Shown here: one piece after another, positions 2,577-19,766 of the stretch
Position numbering within the stretch: the first letter of the stretch is position 1
How the letters are laid out: each line of letters begins with the position of its first letter
Source: Bdellovibrionota bacterium
GTDB taxonomy: Bacteria > Bdellovibrionota_C > UBA2361 > JBIKWN01
Length of the DNA: 31,971 nucleotides
Direction: 5' to 3'
NCBI GenBank assembly: GCA_044356295.1
Contig: JBIKWN010000026.1
Location: 1-31,971, forward strand
The notes under the pieces: generated by a model
Database searches by the model: none
Seen by the model: only the letters and a program-made list of their open reading frames with translations
What the model was told of the DNA's origin: nothing
Translations under genes and position numbers: made by a program

Positions 2577-3032
2577 TTACACCCACACATCATTTTTACT
2601 CTGCGATCGAATCTGACCAGAGGTCCTAAGCTCATCAAGGATTTTTAAAATCCGACGCTGTGCATCTTCGACATCAGAAAGTTTTACTTTTCCAAGCGTC
2701 AGAAAATCATCGTTCACAATTGCAGCTTTTCGTTCTGACATGTTCGTCAGGAAAATCTCTTTGACTGGGGCTGAAGCAGTCTTAAATGACATGACCAAAT
2801 CCCGATGATCGATCGCTGAAAGAAGAACTTGAATCCCTTGAGCAGTTAAAGAGGCGATATCGTCAAAGTTAAACATATTGTCTGCAACTTTTAAGGATAT
2901 CTGTGGATCTTTCTCTTCAATCGCTTTCAATAATTTTCCGCGATGCTCTTGTGGCATTGCTTGAAGGATTTTGGCAGCAATTGCTGCGCCGTCTACTGTT
3001 TCGTCCTCTGGCTTGGAAGTTTTCTTGCTCAT
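2577..3032 (-). CDS. Stand-alone FliG C-terminal domain protein
   Basis: MFNFDD (MFXF motif), NMSERKAAIVNDD torque-helix-like segment and VEDAQRRIL. Only 151 aa, whereas full-length FliG is ~330 aa. Confidence 0.8.
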   Translation of the reverse strand: MSKKTSKPEDETVDGAAIAAKILQAMPQEHRGKLLKAIEEKDPQISLKVADNMFNFDDIASLTAQGIQVLLSAIDHRDLVMSFKTASAPVKEIFLTNMSERKAAIVNDDFLTLGKVKLSDVEDAQRRILKILDELRTSGQIRSQSKNDVWV

Positions 3033-3166: not shown

Positions 3167-3240
3167 GGCGGCGTAGCTCAGCTGGTTAGAGCGTGGGATT
3201 CATAACCCCAAGGTCGGTGATTCGAGCTCACCCGTCGCCA
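3167..3240 (+). tRNA. tRNA-Met (CAT), elongator type; CCA not encoded
   Basis: Cloverleaf: acceptor GGCGGCG/CGTCGCC, D-arm GCTC/GAGC, anticodon CAT at 3201-3203, T-arm GGTGA-TTCGAGC-TCACC, discriminator A. The paired G1:C72 argues against an initiator tRNA. Confidence 0.93.
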
Positions 3241-9274: not shown

Positions 9275-11374
9275 TTAGAAGTGTATTACCAGCGTTGCCC
9301 CAATAGAGAAAGGATCACCAAGTTGTTTATACAGTTTTGCTGGATAATCAGGAGGTTCTACACCAAAATTAAAACCACGAATGGCATACTGTTTATCGAA
9401 TACATTTCTCGCCCAGAGTGAAAGTGTATACCTATCTTGTTGATATCCGATTTCAGCATTTACAAGAGAATAAGGTGTTGAGCGTTGATTGAAAGAATCA
9501 TCAAAATAAAATGATCCCATTCCTGTCACTTGTACTGCCGAATAAAGTGCATCAGTGAAAAAATATTTAGGCATAAAAGAGTATGACCATGAAGGTGCAT
9601 GTGAACGTGCTCTGTTTTGTAAAAGTCCAGGTGTGTTTGCATCCAATTCAGTTTGCAGTAGTGATGTTTGAGCAGTCACTGAAAGTCGATCTGTGAGGTG
9701 TGAAGAAACTTCCCATTCGACACCTTTTGAAAAACCTTCAGCAGCGTTATCAGTGATGTAGGTAAAAGTCAGCGGATCTTTTGGATCAAGTTGATACGCT
9801 CCTTTGACTTGAGCATTTCGAGATTGCTGTAGAAAAAACGAAAGATTCGAAGTAGTTTTTATCTCTTTAAAATATGACTTTGTTCCAATTTCATAGTTCC
9901 ACAGTGATTCATCATCAAAGGTTCTTTGGGATGGTTGGATGTTTAGCCCAGTATTAACTCCGCCTGCTCGAAATCCTCGAGACACAAGAGCATATCCAGT
10001 GGTTGAATCTGTAATGGCATGATTTAAGGATACTGAACTTCCAATCATTGTGTCTTTAGGATCAGCATCTGTTTGTCTTGAATCAGTGTAACGAGCTTCT
10101 TTTTGCTCTAATCGAATGCCGGTAGAGATTGAAGTATCATTCCAGAGAGGTGTTTCTCTCTCAGCATATATGGCTGCGGTTGTGGCGCGGTAGGAAGAGT
10201 TGAGTTTATCGTATGAAACGTTATCTTGAAGGTTATTATTCGAAGAATCTTCAAAAAATCGATTCAGGTATCCTGCAATAAGATACCTTGAATCTTTACC
10301 AAGTTTATAGTCGGCATTGTTGTCAGTAAATCTAAGATCCTGCCAAAATGCATTACGCTTCCTGGTGCTTTCATAGGAATAATCATAAGGAGCATTCACC
10401 CCCCAGAATGGATTATTGCCCCAGTCACCATCAAAACTGTAATCTGTTTTTGCGCCTGTAAAACTTGTAATAGAAGTTAGCTTCCAATCTTTTGAAAGCA
10501 CTTCTGTATAGCGAGCACTAGTACCAATAATATTTAGTGAGTCGATCCCAGGGCGATCACTTTCTGTTTGAAATGAATTATCAATTGTAAACGCATCATA
10601 TCCGTTGTCGGTATTTATATTTAAAAGGCTGAGCACAATTGAAGAATCATTAGAAAAATCATGTCGAAGTTTAAAGATTCCCTGAGATGTTTCACGACCA
10701 TTTGTATCATCACGATTGAGGAAATCATTCGACCTAAATCCATTCTGGCTTTCACGAAACAAACTCATTCGAGCTTTTGTTTTACCATCTGATGAGGATC
10801 CTAATAATGCGACTCCGGTATTATTTAAATCATCACTTCCAAAACTAAATCGGGCTGCTTGAGAATCATCAAAAGCACCTGAGTTTAAATGAATGATACC
10901 CGCCAGTGCATTTGCACCATACGCAGTTGGTTGTGGTCCTCTAAGGATCTCAAGCGAATGAATATCAAACATTGAAACTCCACCGATCCCGCTCAGATCA
11001 ATATCATCAAGAAAAAATCCTACACTGTAATTGGGAGCTCCTTCATATTGTTCGAGTTCGCCGATACCACGTATTTGGAAAAAGCGTGGGGTATTTGAAC
11101 CACCTGCTGAATTAATATTAGGCGAAAGAGAGAGCGATTGTTGTAGCTGTTGGCTTCCTTGATTTTGCAGAGTACCAGATGGAATGACGCTGATACTTGT
11201 TGAGAAATTTTGAATAGGGCGTCCTATAGGATCCGCATTAATTATAATTTCGTTTGGAGAGCTTAATTCTTTTGTCTCTGCGAACACTTTATTGGGAAGG
11301 TTCGACAGCGAAAATATCGATATAAAAATAAAGATAGAAGAGTGGAAATAAAACAGAGAACGAATAGAAAACAT
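9275..11374 (-). CDS. TonB-dependent outer membrane receptor, probably for thiamine or a precursor
   Basis: Signal peptide, TonB-box-like EIIINA, plug motifs QIRGIG and EILRGPQ...YGANALAG, C-terminal Phe. Preceded by a TPP riboswitch. Confidence 0.9.
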   Translation of the reverse strand: MFSIRSLFYFHSSIFIFISIFSLSNLPNKVFAETKELSSPNEIIINADPIGRPIQNFSTSISVIPSGTLQNQGSQQLQQSLSLSPNINSAGGSNTPRFFQIRGIGELEQYEGAPNYSVGFFLDDIDLSGIGGVSMFDIHSLEILRGPQPTAYGANALAGIIHLNSGAFDDSQAARFSFGSDDLNNTGVALLGSSSDGKTKARMSLFRESQNGFRSNDFLNRDDTNGRETSQGIFKLRHDFSNDSSIVLSLLNINTDNGYDAFTIDNSFQTESDRPGIDSLNIIGTSARYTEVLSKDWKLTSITSFTGAKTDYSFDGDWGNNPFWGVNAPYDYSYESTRKRNAFWQDLRFTDNNADYKLGKDSRYLIAGYLNRFFEDSSNNNLQDNVSYDKLNSSYRATTAAIYAERETPLWNDTSISTGIRLEQKEARYTDSRQTDADPKDTMIGSSVSLNHAITDSTTGYALVSRGFRAGGVNTGLNIQPSQRTFDDESLWNYEIGTKSYFKEIKTTSNLSFFLQQSRNAQVKGAYQLDPKDPLTFTYITDNAAEGFSKGVEWEVSSHLTDRLSVTAQTSLLQTELDANTPGLLQNRARSHAPSWSYSFMPKYFFTDALYSAVQVTGMGSFYFDDSFNQRSTPYSLVNAEIGYQQDRYTLSLWARNVFDKQYAIRGFNFGVEPPDYPAKLYKQLGDPFSIGATLVIHF

Positions 11375-11376
11375 AA

Positions 11377-11463
11377 TAACTTCCTCGCGCCGGTATTAAC
11401 CGGATCAGGTTCGATGGGTATTTCTCAGGCGTCAAAAAGAAAATCTAGACACCACCCCAGTTA
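11377..11463 (-). ncRNA. TPP riboswitch (THI-box)
   Basis: Minus strand reads TAACT-GGGGT-GGTGTC...GACGCC-TGAGA-aat-ACCC-atcgaa-CCTGAT-CCGGT-TAAT-ACCGG-CGcgAGGA-AGTTA, giving P1-P5 and the conserved TGAGA and CTGAT/TAAT motifs. Confidence 0.95.
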
Positions 11464-11529
11464 GCGTACTTAGGTGTATCTAATTTTATTAATTAAATCA
11501 ACTAGCTCTTTATTAATATGAACAATGTC

Positions 11530-15340: not shown

Positions 15341-15628
15341 TTGTCTCTTGGTGACCATCTAAAGAAGTACTCAAGAAGGATTCCCACAGATCACAAAAGA
15401 GGTAACAGTAGCGTTTTGCCCCGACCCGTTATCAATGTTTCTGAAGTTACACCTCCAGAGTTGAGGGCTATCATCGAAAGGAAACGTGCTTTTAATCGCA
15501 ACATATTGAGAAGAAGTGCATCCGCCACCGAGAGATACTTTGCCGGCAGGGCATGCTTGATCAATCGTTACGGCAGAACCAGCAGGAAAAAAAAGGAACT
15601 GTCCATCATCATAGTGAACAGTTCTTGA
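15341..15628 (+). CDS. Possible small basic hypothetical protein (uncertain)
   Basis: 95-codon frame with a TTG start in an otherwise empty 560-bp gap. No motif or clear SD. Confidence 0.3.
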   Translation: MSLGDHLKKYSRRIPTDHKRGNSSVLPRPVINVSEVTPPELRAIIERKRAFNRNILRRSASATERYFAGRACLINRYGRTSRKKKELSIIIVNSS

Positions 15629-15810
15629 AAGTGCTGGAGCAGTAAGCCCTGAAAAAAAGCTAAGGAATACGAAAAATCCTTAGTATTCCTCTAGTTTGCT
15701 AAATTCTCTTTATAAATTTAGCTTCAGAATCTTTAATTGCCAAACTAATTCGACGACTTTATGTACGTGATTTTACTAACTTACCCCTGGTTGGTGAGTA
15801 GTAGCTTTAC

Positions 15811-15825
15811 GCACAAGGATTGTGT
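15811..15825 (+). promoter_or_regulatory. Putative CsrA/RsmA binding hairpin in the flagellin leader
   Basis: GCACAAGGATTGTGT forms a CACA/TGTG stem with an AGGAT loop. A second GGA overlaps the start codon (TTGGATG). Confidence 0.65.
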
Positions 15826-15842
15826 TTTAGAAAGCTTATTGG

Positions 15843-17699
15843 ATGAGTGGTTTTTTTTCGTTAAAGTCTAACGTCGCTTCACTTAGAGCGCAGCGACAGG
15901 TTGCAAACGCAACTGATAAGCTTTCATCAAGTTATGAAAAGCTTTCTTCTGGATTGCGAATTAACAAAGCAAGCGATGATGCTGCAGGGCTTGCAGTATC
16001 ATCAAAACTCAAAGCAGATACACGAATATTCACACAAGCAGTAAGAAATATTAATGACGGCGCAAGTACCCTTGCAATCGCCAGTGGCGCTGTAGAAAGT
16101 TTATCCAATATCGTAACAAGGCTCCAAGAACTTGCTGAACAATCAGCAAACGGAAGCTACAGTGTCAAGCAGCGCGCTTCTATGGATGCAGAAGCACAAG
16201 CTCTTTCGAAAGAATACTTTCGAGTATCTAGAGCCACTACATTCAACGGAATAAATCTTTTTGATGGAAGCACTCAAGGCGTTTCAATTCAAGCCGGTTA
16301 TGGTACTGGTGGTTCGATATCTTCTTCGCTTGGAGGGATGCTTGGTACTGGGAGTTTTAAGGAGAGAACAACTTTTTCGATGGATGCTGTTGCTTTTTCA
16401 GTGGTCCTTGGAGATGTAAACGGTGACGGCATTCTTGATATGGTGTCAACAGATTTAAATACCAACAGCGCCATAGTTTTTCTTGGAAATGGAGATGGTA
16501 GTTTTAAAGCAAAAATGTCTTTTGCTTTAGGTACGACCGATACATCAGCTATACTTGGCGATCTTAACGGGGATGGTATCCTTGATATTGTGACATCAGG
16601 AGGTAGTAATAATTTCTCGATACTCCTTGGAAATGGAGATGGTAGTTTTAATGCTATGAAATCTTTTGCTTTAGGAAGTGTTGTTAACTCTCTTATCCTA
16701 GGAGATGTCAATGGAGATGGAATTCTTGATGTGCTCACAACGGATTCTATCGATAATACTTTCTCAGTTATGCTTGGAAATGGTAATGGAAGCTTTAAAG
16801 CAAGAACATCAACTCAACTTGGCAATCAGCCTTTATCTATTGCCGCTGGCGATTTAAACGGTGACGGTATTCTTGATATCGTGACAACAGATACATCAGA
16901 TCATAACGCATCAGTACTTCTTGGAAATGGAGATGGTAGTTTTAAAGCTAGAACTTCTATGTCCACAGGGTTCACTCCGGGTTCTGTTGCTCTTGGCGAT
17001 CTGAATGGGGATGGGATACTTGATATTGTAACAGCAGATAGTGATGAATATGCCACTTCAGTTTTTCTTGGTAACGGTAATGGAAGTTTTAAGGCAAGAA
17101 GCTCTTTTAGTACTGGTCCAACGCCTCTTTCTGTGAAACTTGGAGATCTAAATGGTGACGGTGCTCTTGATATTGTAACGGTAAATCAACTTGACAATTC
17201 TACCTCAATTCTTCTTGGAAATGGCAATGGAAGCTTTAAGGCAATGGCTACCTTTCAAATAGGTAGTATCGCTTACGGCTCTGCTCTAGGCGATCTAAAT
17301 GGTGACGGTGTTCTTGATATCGTAATATCTGATAGCGACGATAATACTGCATCTGTATTGCTTGGAACTACCAAAGACGGCATCTCACCAATTCTTCCTT
17401 TTTCACTAAAATCTATCGCAGATGCAAGACAAGCAATGTCAATTTTTTCTAACACTGCAAATAACCTTGGAATTCAAAAAGGAAAACTTGGCGCATTTGA
17501 AAGTAGGCTCTCAGTCGCTGTAAAGGTCGTACAATCAACTGTTTTGGAATACCAGGGAGCATATAGTCGTATCGCTGATGTTGACGTCGCAGAGGAAAGT
17601 TCACGCATAGTCAGCACAAAAATTCTTCAGCAATCAGCTGTTGCTGTTCTTGCTCAGGCTAATCAAAGTCCTGCATTGGTGCTTCAACTACTTGGATGA
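15843..17699 (+). CDS. fliC: Flagellin with an inserted seven-repeat FG-GAP/VCBS beta-propeller domain
   Basis: Flagellin N-domain (EKLSSGLRINKASDDAAGLAV, RLQELAEQSANG, TTFNG) and C-domain (SRIADVDVAEE...LAQANQSPALVLQLLG) flanking seven GD[LV]NGDG.LD repeats. Confidence 0.93.
   Translation: MSGFFSLKSNVASLRAQRQVANATDKLSSSYEKLSSGLRINKASDDAAGLAVSSKLKADTRIFTQAVRNINDGASTLAIASGAVESLSNIVTRLQELAEQSANGSYSVKQRASMDAEAQALSKEYFRVSRATTFNGINLFDGSTQGVSIQAGYGTGGSISSSLGGMLGTGSFKERTTFSMDAVAFSVVLGDVNGDGILDMVSTDLNTNSAIVFLGNGDGSFKAKMSFALGTTDTSAILGDLNGDGILDIVTSGGSNNFSILLGNGDGSFNAMKSFALGSVVNSLILGDVNGDGILDVLTTDSIDNTFSVMLGNGNGSFKARTSTQLGNQPLSIAAGDLNGDGILDIVTTDTSDHNASVLLGNGDGSFKARTSMSTGFTPGSVALGDLNGDGILDIVTADSDEYATSVFLGNGNGSFKARSSFSTGPTPLSVKLGDLNGDGALDIVTVNQLDNSTSILLGNGNGSFKAMATFQIGSIAYGSALGDLNGDGVLDIVISDSDDNTASVLLGTTKDGISPILPFSLKSIADARQAMSIFSNTANNLGIQKGKLGAFESRLSVAVKVVQSTVLEYQGAYSRIADVDVAEESSRIVSTKILQQSAVAVLAQANQSPALVLQLLG
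16341..17366 (+). repeat. Seven coding tandem repeats (~147 bp, 49 aa) of FG-GAP type inside the flagellin
   Basis: Asp codons of DxNGDG at 16413, 16560, 16704, 16851, 16998, 17145 and 17292 (spacings 147, 144, 147, 147, 147, 147). Confidence 0.95.
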
Positions 17700-17720
17700 G
17701 ATGCAAATAAGGGTATCCAG

Positions 17721-17799
17721 GGGGACGCTCACCTTTATAACCAATTGATTTTTATCGAACTTTTCATCATTTCAACAACTCATACAGGTGAGCGTCCCC
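17721..17799. repeat. REPIN/MITE-like inverted-repeat element, copy 1
   Basis: GGGGACGCTCACCTTTAT (17721-17738) pairs with ATACAGGTGAGCGTCCCC (17782-17799) at 17/18 positions, with an AT-rich spacer. Lies between convergent genes. Confidence 0.85.
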
Positions 17800-17805
17800 A
17801 AAATG

Positions 17806-18327
17806 CTAATTCGAATTTAGTGCACATACCGCATGTGCTGTAATAGTTGCGTTAACAGACGTACCAGAAATATTGCGGAATCCACAGAAATAGGAGTAAA
17901 AGCTTGCAGTTTCATCCGGATATCCATAGTAAACTACAAGACGAGAATCTGAGCTTTCACATCCACCGCCGGTTGGTTTTTTGATACCAGAGCAAGTGAC
18001 AAAGACCCCAGTAGTTGCTCCACTTGCAACAGTTACAGTATCTGAACTTTCTTCAAGAACTCTTCCAGAAATACCATTTGAGCCCGCCTGACCTTGAGCT
18101 CCAGTATCACCTTTAGGCCCAGTTGCGCTCGAAGGACCGGTTTCTCCTTTTAATCCGAGCTTGGAAAGCACAGATACACTTGCTTTTTTAAAAGGAGAGA
18201 CGCATTTTGAGGCAATCCTAAAATTTCCTTTCGAATTAACGCAGAGCACTTCCGAGAATGAATCAGATGTAAGATGAAAGAAGAAAAAAGTTGCGAGTAA
18301 ATAAGTTATCGATATTTTCATATTCAT
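17806..18327 (-). CDS. Small secreted protein with a short collagen-like G-X-Y segment and a Cys-containing C-terminal domain
   Basis: Signal peptide, then GLK GET GPS [SAT] GPK GDT GAQ GQA GSN GIS GRV, and CSGIKKPTGGGC...AVCA. Confidence 0.8.
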   Translation of the reverse strand: MNMKISITYLLATFFFFHLTSDSFSEVLCVNSKGNFRIASKCVSPFKKASVSVLSKLGLKGETGPSSATGPKGDTGAQGQAGSNGISGRVLEESSDTVTVASGATTGVFVTCSGIKKPTGGGCESSDSRLVVYYGYPDETASFYSYFCGFRNISGTSVNATITAHAVCALNSN

Positions 18328-18416: not shown

Positions 18417-19766
18417 ATGAGTGGATTAAATAATCGGATAACACTCTCTGCTTTAACTGCTCTTCTATTTTGTCAAGTAAGTGGAGGACCTAATGGTTTA
18501 GAAGAAATTGTACAATCAAGCGGTGCACTTGCTTCGCTTATATTAATCCTGATAACTCCATTTATCTGGGCAATTCCTGCAGCACTTGTTACTGCAGAGA
18601 TGAGTACTGCGATTCCAAAAGAGGGAGGGTATTATCATTGGGTAAAAGATACGTTGGGACCGAAGTGGGGTTTGTTAAGTGCTCTCTGGATGTGGATCTA
18701 CTCTTGGTTTGATTGTGCGTTGTATCCAATTATATTTGCAGAGATAGTTATTCATTCTTCAATTCTTGCTGGATGGTTACCTCAAGAAGCATCCTCTCAC
18801 ATGGAGCTAAGATTTCTTCTGTGTCTCGTGTTAATTGTTCCTTTTACTATAATCAATATCATTGGTGTTAAAAAAGTTGGTCAATGGGCGATTGTTCTAA
18901 CTACGTTAATTTGCATTTCATTTACATTTTTAATTCTCTGTGGACTTTTTAGTTTTTTCAGTAATCCAGTTCCATTAGTTACGGTGCTATTGAATGATGC
19001 CGTTGCTCCAAATTTTATAGATTCATTAGGTGCAGGGCTTTTAATTGTTATGTGGAATTATCTCGGATGGAGTGGGCTTTCAACTATCACTGCTGAGATC
19101 GATAATCCCAAAAAAATATTCCCGAAAGCATTACTGTATTCAATGGTATTAATTATTGCTCTTTATTTTCTTTCTGTCTTTGCTGGACTTCAGGTATATC
19201 CTGATAAAACTAAATGGGAATCTGGCGTTTGGCCCACAATCGGTTATCACGCAGGCGGGAATTTACTTTTTATATTTTTAATTATAACGAGTATCGCCAG
19301 TGCCATGTCTCTTTTTAATGCGCAAGCGCTTGCTGCTTCGCGGATACCGTATGTGCTTGCTCTGGATGGATATTTGCCAAAATGGTTTGCTAAACTGAAT
19401 CCAAAGAGCGAATCACCTGTTCGAGCAATCTGTTTTTGTTCTGTTATTTATTCTCTTCTTTGTTTGAAATCTTTTTCAGAGTTAATAACTTTAGACGTGT
19501 TCTTATTCTCAAGCACATTACTCCTCCAGCACATAAGTTTTGTTGTTTTTAGATTAAAAGACCCAGATAAAGAGCGTCCATTCAAAGTACCTGGTAATTT
19601 TTATGTCATTTGTACTATCGCAGCAGCTCCAATTATTCTAGCTATGGTTGCTACTTTAAATGAGATGCGAGACCCCGACCAATTGAGCAGCGTCATTATC
19701 TCTCTAAGTATCATTATTCTAACGAGTTTGTTTGCATATTTTTCTAGGGGACGCTCACCTTTATAA
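18417..19766 (+). CDS. APC-superfamily amino acid/polyamine permease
   Basis: About 12 hydrophobic segments, VSGGPNGLEE, AEMSTAIPKEGGYYHWV, WNYLGW...AEIDNP and RPFKVP. Confidence 0.9.
   Translation: MSGLNNRITLSALTALLFCQVSGGPNGLEEIVQSSGALASLILILITPFIWAIPAALVTAEMSTAIPKEGGYYHWVKDTLGPKWGLLSALWMWIYSWFDCALYPIIFAEIVIHSSILAGWLPQEASSHMELRFLLCLVLIVPFTIINIIGVKKVGQWAIVLTTLICISFTFLILCGLFSFFSNPVPLVTVLLNDAVAPNFIDSLGAGLLIVMWNYLGWSGLSTITAEIDNPKKIFPKALLYSMVLIIALYFLSVFAGLQVYPDKTKWESGVWPTIGYHAGGNLLFIFLIITSIASAMSLFNAQALAASRIPYVLALDGYLPKWFAKLNPKSESPVRAICFCSVIYSLLCLKSFSELITLDVFLFSSTLLLQHISFVVFRLKDPDKERPFKVPGNFYVICTIAAAPIILAMVATLNEMRDPDQLSSVIISLSIIILTSLFAYFSRGRSPL

Follow-up and report, generated by a model that had tools for sequence, protein, structure and literature searches.

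A Bdellovibrionota flagellin with a predicted seven-bladed, integrin-type FG-GAP propeller as its outer domain, and its diverged paralogs

We analyzed a 31,971-nucleotide stretch of a Bdellovibrionota bacterium genome (contig JBIKWN010000026.1 of GenBank assembly GCA_044356295.1, positions 1 to 31,971; hereafter the window), in which one gene (15843..17699, forward strand, ATG start) encodes a flagellin of 618 amino acids plus stop that carries FG-GAP repeats between its two conserved ends (Table 1). Profile searches placed Flagellin_N (PF00669) at residues 9-143 (E 3e-34, 118.5 bits against a gathering score of 26.6, profile positions 3-137 of 139) and Flagellin_C (PF00700) at residues 536-617 (E 1e-16, 61.4 bits against 23, positions 5-86 of 86). 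The family FG-GAP_3 (PF13517) matched in seven stretches (E 7e-72, 238.4 bits against 26.9), and the Pfam family FG-GAP was likewise above its cut-off (79 bits against 22.1). A search of PDB sequences with the protein returned flagellins only, Vibrio-type flagellins at the top. The two flagellin parts together make up 272 residues, compared with 286 for the short flagellins of the same genome, and their D0/D1 E-values to these short flagellins (1e-43 to 1e-32) match those to the long ones. We considered and rejected an identity as FlgL (TIGR02550, 67.9 bits against a cut-off of 127.2); a separate flgL lies beside flgK on contig C98.

Delimited by anchoring on the calcium motif, the insert resolves into seven blades of 48-49 residues that are in register with one another (182-230, 231-278, 279-327, 328-376, 377-425, 426-474 and 475-~511). 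Every blade contains D[VL]NGDG[IAV]LD, the strict form D.[ND].DG..D is found in 7/7, and six G[ND]G[DN]GSF linkers lie between the blades. The piece before blade 1, LGGMLGTGSFKERTTFSMD (residues 164-181), aligns in register to the stretch 'LGNGDGSFKA...' missing from blade 7, which ends with 'ASVLLG' at residue 511; read from this register, the two ends of the insert complete one repeat, a split blade 7. A first-pass annotation of the same letters had described intact D0/D1 termini, exactly seven repeats each with the calcium-loop motif, LGNG[DN]GSF linking segments and an insert whose ends jointly form one repeat, and all of this holds: the termini cover their profiles almost in full, and Flagellin_N, FG-GAP_3 and Flagellin_C each score above gathering. 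At the DNA level the blades form one repeat family (D4) of seven copies with spacings of 147/144 nt and a period of 147 nt. The copies are 65-79% identical and TRF called no DNA-level tandem repeat at the gene, which together argue that the blades are old rather than the product of recent amplification or assembly stutter.

Table 1. Features of the propeller flagellin gene and its flanks (window coordinates).
Feature	Position	Strand	Remarks
Candidate sigma-28 (FliA)-type promoter, TTAAT-N15-ACGACTTT	15733..15760	+	110 nt upstream of start
CsrA-site-like hairpin, CACA-AGGAT-TGTG	15812..15824	+	5' leader, at -31; GGA in hairpin loop
N-terminal D0/D1 helices and D1 hairpin (residues 1-163)	15843..16331	+	Flagellin_N; model helices 11-35, 38-102, 108-131
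Seven-bladed FG-GAP beta-propeller (residues 164-511), seven D-x-N-x-D-G-x-x-D loops	16332..17375	+	Pfam, motif, VIA-align; ring predicted to close through pairing of the N-terminal strand-4 piece with blade 7
C-terminal D1/D0 helices (residues 512-618)	17376..17696	+	Flagellin_C; model helix 525-617
Palindrome, 18-nt arms, 94% complementary, 43-nt loop	17721..17799	.	22 nt past stop; copy of a dispersed hairpin element

An AlphaFold2 model built with a 61-row alignment (mean pLDDT 88.2, pTM 0.81) has long helices within residues 11-131 and 525-617, and is all-beta over residues 147-511. VIA-align superposed residues 170..514 of the model on the complete propeller of integrin alphaIIb (Z 36.0, rmsd 2.2 A, 321 aligned residues), followed by integrin alpha-v, alpha-4 and alpha-5 (Z 33.6-34.5). 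In Foldseek the model matched flagellar filaments through its core and seven-bladed propellers through its insert (BBSome, ITFG2, PVL and AAL2 lectins, CRTAC1 and integrin alpha-v). The calcium motif connects strands 1 and 2 in every blade of the model (e.g. strand 1 at 330-336, loop at 337-344, strand 2 at 345-350), the position of the calcium sites in integrins. The model thus favours a ring of seven blades, closed and of the integrin-alpha type, whose seven loops are predicted from their motif to bind calcium. The two D1 linkers both emerge at blade 7, from its 3-4 connection, which is on the conserved face with the calcium loops. The closed FG-GAP propeller with adjacent ends at the outer-domain position, which the first-pass annotation had proposed, was thus returned by structure prediction and agrees with the superposition on alphaIIb and with the split blade 7.

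The likeness to the integrin alpha head is a likeness of fold, not of shared function. The two have in common seven four-stranded blades (Z 34-36, rmsd 2.2-2.5 A over 317-324 residues) and a D-x-[DN]-x-D-G-x-x-D loop between strands 1 and 2, at a sequence identity of only 15-17%. Integrins have three or four calcium loops; unlike the integrin alpha head, the window propeller has the loop in all seven blades, lacks a partner beta subunit and is inserted in a flagellin. The fungal lectins of the PVL/AAL2 type (Psathyrella velutina lectin, 2bwr/4up4) are also seven-bladed and integrin-like (Foldseek E ~1e-10, 21-22% identity), but the window propeller differs from them in having no Trp and two Tyr, and the protein scored 41.2 bits against the PVL-type beta_propeller_lectin model (NF052348), below its cut-off of 200. 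An adhesin or lectin role is a candidate function.

Through the core of the model, the top Foldseek matches were flagellins with large outer domains. H7 of E. coli O157:H7 (7sn4), the flagellin of Geovibrio thiophilus (9au6) and HEXXH flagellins of the flagellinolysin type share the D0/D1 core and a foreign domain at the D1 hairpin. Their outer domains have Ig-like, beta-barrel or peptidase folds, whereas that of the window protein is a propeller; they have been seen in filaments by cryo-EM, whereas the window protein is known from its gene and model. Outer domains of 300-500 residues are tolerated in real filaments.

The genome (2.96 Mb in 128 contigs, 93.6% complete, 1.07% contamination) encodes the apparatus that such a protein would need. 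A cluster on contig C128 has the order motAB-fliLMNOPQR-flhBA-flhF-flhG-fliA, a second on C98 reads flgK-flgL-csrA-fliW, and fliD and fliS are also present. The first-pass annotation had made its proposal conditional on flagellar export and hook genes; the complete export and hook-associated set was found, and the objection that the genome lacks these genes therefore fails. In addition to the flagellar flhA we observed two FlhA-like (FHIPEP) genes, on C100 (L127:8717-10879) and C18 (L128:9097-10956). One of the two is surrounded by a tad-pilus-like cluster with two T2SSF genes, a T2SSE ATPase and a ParA-like ATPase; the neighbours of the other encode a lipoprotein of the YscJ/FliF family, a TPR protein and sigma factors, and further export-gate genes were not seen nearby.

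Profile searches gave 22 Flagellin_N matches in this genome. Ten are long flagellins of 573-628 residues, all with a propeller (C123, C96, C8, C82, a tandem pair on C74, C128, C113, C120 and C12), and about nine are short flagellins of roughly 286 residues, to which FlgL is added; contigs C15, C95, C38, C45, C124, C47, C33 and C93 are listed for the flagellin set alongside the ten long copies. The frame of the C120 copy is interrupted by a TAA. Since many copies lie at contig ends, copy counts in this genome and in its relatives are lower bounds. The propeller of the window copy carries seven calcium loops and those of its nine paralogs 5-7, and all ten are acidic (net charge -14 to -28, pI 4.05-4.22, no Cys). 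We found no Maf-type flagellin glycosyltransferase (PF01973) in this genome of 93.6% completeness, which leaves glycosylation of the Ser/Thr-rich loops without support. Multi-flagellin filaments are known from Vibrio (FlaA-E), Caulobacter and Bdellovibrio (FliC1-6). The window genome resembles these in having several paralogs, with candidate promoters of sigma-28 and sigma-54 type mixed among them, and differs in their number, far higher at about 19 flagellin genes in 2.96 Mb, and in their falling into two size classes, half of them with a propeller.

On contig C38, adjoining two short flagellin genes, we also observed a 689-residue FG-GAP_3 protein (G000:C38:25619-27688, reverse strand, identical with L094:5620-7689; E 3e-31). 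It matches Flagellin_N below threshold (24 bits against 26.6) and has no Flagellin_C and no NCBIfam family; from its sequence it appears to be another flagellin-like propeller protein, one that has diverged much further. Nearby genes encode a carbamoyltransferase and a family-2 glycosyltransferase.

The ten paralogs are alike in their termini and strongly different in their propellers: termini are 42-60% identical (83% in the tandem pair) and propellers 28-38% (36% in the tandem pair). When per-column entropy was folded on the blade register, the calcium loop GDLNGDGxLD and the LGNGDGSF turn came out as conserved; the variable class comprises the 2-3 and 4-1 loops as well as strand 4 and the residues preceding it. 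The 1-2 and 3-4 connections of a four-stranded blade share one face, opposite to that of the 2-3 and 4-1 loops, and the variation is therefore concentrated on the side away from the calcium loops and along the rim. As both D1 linkers exit on the conserved side, the topology suggests that the variable face points away from the filament.

The D0/D1 tree has a branch (UFboot 90, SH-aLRT 83, 91% of bootstrap trees) with all ten long copies together on one side of it, a pattern consistent with a single insertion that was then duplicated. In a tree with five other genomes, five copies of the same-genus genome G072 pair one to one with five different paralogs (SH-aLRT 91-100), which indicates that the paralogs are old. 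Bursts confined to single lineages appear in the same tree, where nine copies from G015 clade together, as do three from G034, and the window copy groups with copies of G034, G047 and G015. By rough Nei-Gojobori estimates, dN/dS is 0.03-0.17 in termini versus 0.5-1.1 in variable registers. Recent pairs within a genome show 82-96% identity in their termini, 46-72% in the core registers and 14-37% in the variable ones; one such pair, G034 L103/L108, has a dS of 0.15 in the termini versus 1.6-1.9 in the propeller, which points, from the sequences, to gene conversion of the termini or to exchange of the propeller module. In the orthologue pair formed by the C8 copy and G072_L114, by comparison, the propeller is 89-93% identical versus 85.5% for the termini, and its dN/dS of 0.03-0.05 marks a propeller that, by this estimate, is kept under purifying selection.

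The architecture extends well beyond this genome. Of the 120 best matches listed from a set of 5.8 billion proteins, 74 combine the three parts at a median length of 620 residues; 33 of these have seven calcium loops and 22 have six. The database names of these relatives are 'flagellin-like hook-associated protein FlgL' (a generic JGI label), 'FG-GAP-like' and 'VCBS repeat-containing protein'. Full-length matches at E <= 1e-60 occur in 57/124 genomes of the phylum group (39/64 genera, 32/73 high-quality genomes). Copy numbers reach ten or more in some genomes of the group, with 10-16 long copies in related genomes, and tandem arrays occur in some (e.g. G114:C33, 34.8-58.4 kb); with all candidates scored, there were 11 matches in G047 and 16 in G015. 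A scan of 73 of 74 loci in named genomes gave six full-architecture frames at four loci in three genomes (uncultured Bdellovibrionales/Bdellovibrionota metagenome-assembled genomes and one unclassified bacterium), a figure that is no measure of taxonomic range; the search patterns fell in the conserved flagellin N-terminus, and most of the 74 loci are therefore ordinary flagellins. The sequencing runs that hold most of the window gene (X1 and X2) are lake-water metagenomes, and our statement on habitat is limited to these two, as runs X3-X16 contain small shares of the gene's words only (X3 and X4 gave short pieces). Together, these observations describe a large, patchily spread and uncharacterised family of uncultured freshwater Bdellovibrio-like bacteria.

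Upstream of the gene we observed candidate signals of flagellar control. In addition to the leader hairpin (Table 1), there is another GGA at the start codon, which it overlaps (TTGGATG). A 4-bp hairpin with GGA in its loop was found at most 50 nt from the start in 13/19 flagellin genes (7/10 of the long ones), compared with 142/1884 other ORFs (7.5%; binomial p 4e-11), and both csrA and fliW are present in the genome. A CsrA-FliW check on flagellin is known from Bacillus (B. subtilis hag) and Campylobacter; the leader layout here is like that of flagellins regulated in this way, with CsrA binding predicted from sequence. For the promoter, the pattern TAA[ACT]-N14-16-nCG[AT]..T[TA] lies upstream of 9/19 flagellin genes versus 94/1856 other ORFs, a contrast that is only suggestive because this loose pattern was derived by eye from the same upstream regions; fliA is present in the genome. 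The strict sigma-28 pattern (TAAA-N14-16-CCGATA, one mismatch) was found upstream of none of the 19 flagellin genes, and a sigma-70 promoter scan did no better than shuffles (7 versus 7.3). A sigma-54 pattern occurs at a single site among the 19, before the short flagellin gene C38_29773 (G000:C38:29773-30636), where TGGCA-N6-TTGC lies at -110, unlike the others. Two classes of flagellin promoter are known in Vibrio or Helicobacter, and the upstream sequences here give hints of two classes as well.

In print, the architecture has been catalogued once to our finding. Fields et al. (2024, Nat Commun 15:9500; PMC11532411) grouped 16,948 AlphaFold flagellin outer domains into 682 clusters, of which #55, labelled 'WD40-repeats', has 40 members in Supplementary data 1; 16 of its rows combine Flagellin_N, Flagellin_C and PF13517 FG-GAP_3 (545-670 residues, uncultured bacteria), with source labels such as Deltaproteobacteria, SAR324, Bradymonadales and the like. 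The architecture is the same as that of the window protein. The treatment of the cluster comprises one sentence and a supplementary figure with no experiment, and a cellular homologue is stated to have been found, with the figure cited for it; the words FG-GAP, integrin, lectin and Bdellovibrio are absent from the main text. We reject the WD40 label for the window propeller, which matches Pfam FG-GAP and has integrin-alpha propellers as its best structural matches: WD40 was not among the six Pfam families matching the protein at E <= 0.01, and the only common property is the seven-bladed shape. The calcium loops, ten-fold paralogy, face-specific variation and CsrA-type leaders that we observe here do not appear in those passages. 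Among the papers listed by our literature searches there was no other on a flagellin with an FG-GAP propeller and no characterised FG-GAP flagellin. The architecture itself is, however, already catalogued and abundant in public data.

We propose, with a probability of about 0.55, that the gene encodes a true filament-forming flagellin that presents an outward layer of calcium-loaded propellers with a paralog-specific distal face, likely used for contact or recognition. Seen in the analysis are how the domains are arranged and folded, their motifs, the family of paralogs with its pattern of variation, and the flagellar genes of the genome; incorporation in filaments, orientation, calcium-dependent folding and a binding role are inferences. 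The gene would come under flagellar control through the late sigma-28-type promoter and the CsrA/FliW-type check in the leader, and its product would be exported unfolded through the flagellar type III channel and polymerise under the FliD cap. There, the conserved D0/D1 termini would form the filament core and the whole outer domain would be the closed propeller with one calcium loop per blade, which would fold outside the cell, where calcium would fill the seven loops and lock the ring; until the domain has passed the channel, the same loops may keep it unfolded. The 2-3 and 4-1 loop face and the rim would point away from the core. As the distal face differs among the ten paralogs, the cell could coat its flagellum with different acidic, calcium-loaded surfaces, and the most likely use of these would be paralog-specific contact with surfaces, particles or other cells, by binding rather than catalysis.

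A number of observations weigh against this proposal. The orientation and the fit to an 11-protofilament lattice rest on topology and on general lattice dimensions, and the top-face loops, being short and polar with 0 Trp and 2 Tyr, are unlike a typical sugar pocket. The N-terminus of the window copy (MSGFFSLKSN...) is unlike the MPITI(G/A)SNI of most paralogs. The roughly 20 NCBIfam flagellin models (e.g. NF009444 and NF006468) all scored under their curated cut-offs (best 177.1 versus 332 bits), each matching in two stretches; such scores are expected for a split match, and are still no pass for membership. No same-genus orthologue of the window copy was found, in two genomes that are only 62% and 86% complete. 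The identity contrast between registers is partly circular, since the register classes were defined on the same family, and the dN/dS values are rough because dS is mostly saturated. None of the runs listed for the gene that hold it is an RNA sequencing run. Finally, relatives such as Bdellovibrio have membrane-sheathed flagella, and a sheath, if present, would bury the propeller.

The propeller may instead be a structural or protective coat, a rigid, acidic, calcium-stiffened layer that alters the mechanics of the filament or shields its core from proteases, flagellotropic phages or grazers and has no specific ligand. We regard this as a possible though doubtful explanation: the uniform acidity of all ten propellers, the lack of Cys and the short polar loops would suit a coat, lattices of outer domains that affect motility are described for other flagellins in the abstracts of PMC8931119 and PMC10256154, and the cluster 55 passage of PMC11532411 describes the fold only as a 'rigid scaffold'. 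A coat leaves unexplained, however, why there are ten deeply diverged versions with their differences gathered on one face, and why one particular version is strongly conserved between species. Alternatively, variation itself may be the function, with interchangeable modules on a shared flagellin scaffold letting the population change the flagellar surface to evade flagellotropic phages, predators or competitors, in the manner of H-antigen variation. The lineage-specific expansions (nine copies in the G015 clade, three in G034), the tandem arrays, the dS contrast of G034 L103/L108 and the elevated dN/dS of the variable registers fit this idea, but we think it unlikely, given paralogs old enough for five G072 copies to pair with them one to one, a pair under strong purifying selection through its whole propeller, and a window locus where no inversion or switching element was seen and the downstream palindrome is a dispersed element.

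Some flagellin homologues are secreted, as is FlaC of Campylobacter, and the window protein could use the flagellar gate as a secretion route and act, free or cell-bound, as a calcium-dependent binding protein without polymerising. The position of the gene away from flagellar operons, the very high gene number and the divergent 689-residue FG-GAP protein on C38 with Flagellin_N below cut-off are in keeping with export alone, which is nonetheless improbable for a protein whose D0 and D1 are complete at both ends (3-137 of 139; 5-86 of 86) and for a family whose termini are under purifying selection (dN/dS 0.03-0.17). To an assembly artefact, or a dead gene mis-joined from repeats in a metagenome bin, we give almost no weight. 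Logan contigs do break within the repeats, one X2 contig omits 438 nt with 31 shared letters at the joint, and the C120 paralog has its in-frame stop. However, the frame of the window gene is open, run X1 tiles the gene with 0 differences, and run X2, from a different study, has 0 differences over 15600-16479, 16560-16802 and 16918-17800. The omission is best read as k-mer collapse, because the omitted interior is present at similar depth. Blades that are only 65-79% identical in DNA and dozens of independent assemblies that give the same length (median 620 residues) also speak against an artefact. The filament-forming flagellin with a diversified distal face accordingly remains our preferred reading, and a bolder form of it, which we consider unlikely, would make the flagellum a programmable recognition organ with ten or more interchangeable heads that stay unfolded in the low-calcium cytoplasm and close on extracellular calcium. 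The heads would be kept unfolded to pass the narrow channel and fold on exit like RTX proteins, and each selectively maintained top face would bind a different prey, particle or surface.

The window flagellin gene is monocistronic, stands among housekeeping genes and, as the first-pass annotation had stated, lies outside any flagellar operon as far as the window extends. The accessory (minor) status that the annotation read from this position may apply, but the gene is no single extra: it is one of ten propeller flagellins beside about nine short ones. Directly upstream lies PBP1A and further upstream sucCD, ClpB, a TonB receptor and QueF; downstream follow a small secreted collagen-like protein, an amino-acid permease, a 2-oxoacid dehydrogenase, beta-oxidation genes and paa genes. 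The collagen-like protein (17806..18327, reverse strand, 173 residues), just past the flagellin gene, has a hydrophobic N-terminus, a short G-x-y run and weak, sub-threshold matches to collagen-like adhesins. The palindrome between the two genes is possibly also a terminator, and the 13-mer of its arm (GGGGACGCTCACC...) occurs at 30 sites genome-wide, so it is not flagellin-specific; further copies lie at window position 19747, upstream of the C128 propeller flagellin and in many unrelated places, and contigs of several runs branch at 17721/17754. Rfam gave nothing at the flagellin gene within the window. Elsewhere in the window we observed a TPP riboswitch (62.5 bits, 11364-11469, reverse strand) at the 5' end of the TonB-dependent receptor gene (9275..11374, reverse strand), suggesting thiamine-regulated uptake, and a tRNA at 3167-3240 (forward strand). 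A stand-alone protein of 151 residues (2577..3032, reverse strand) consists of the FliG C-terminal domain only (Pfam FliG_C, 1.9e-29; TIGR00207, 109 bits against a cut-off of 226.7) and lies far from the flagellar clusters.

Three observations are new here: paralogs that are alike in their termini and strongly different at the loops opposite the calcium face, purifying selection on the propeller of one same-genus orthologue pair, and a CsrA-type GGA hairpin in 13/19 flagellin leaders, that of the window gene included. The only mention of the architecture that we found in print misnames its fold, and genes now named 'FlgL', 'VCBS repeat protein' or 'FG-GAP repeat protein' should be called flagellins. 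With its conserved scaffold and diversified face, the family is a natural system for the export of large beta-rich domains through the flagellar channel, and it also suits questions on the calcium control of folding outside the cell and on the use of multi-flagellin repertoires. To our knowledge there is no structure of a propeller-covered filament. It is through the outer domains of flagellins that flagella acquire roles other than swimming, and a filament covered by thousands of integrin-type, calcium-loaded propellers would be a new filament surface; if the flagellum were indeed a recognition organ, a swimming cell would determine by its choice of flagellin what it adheres to.

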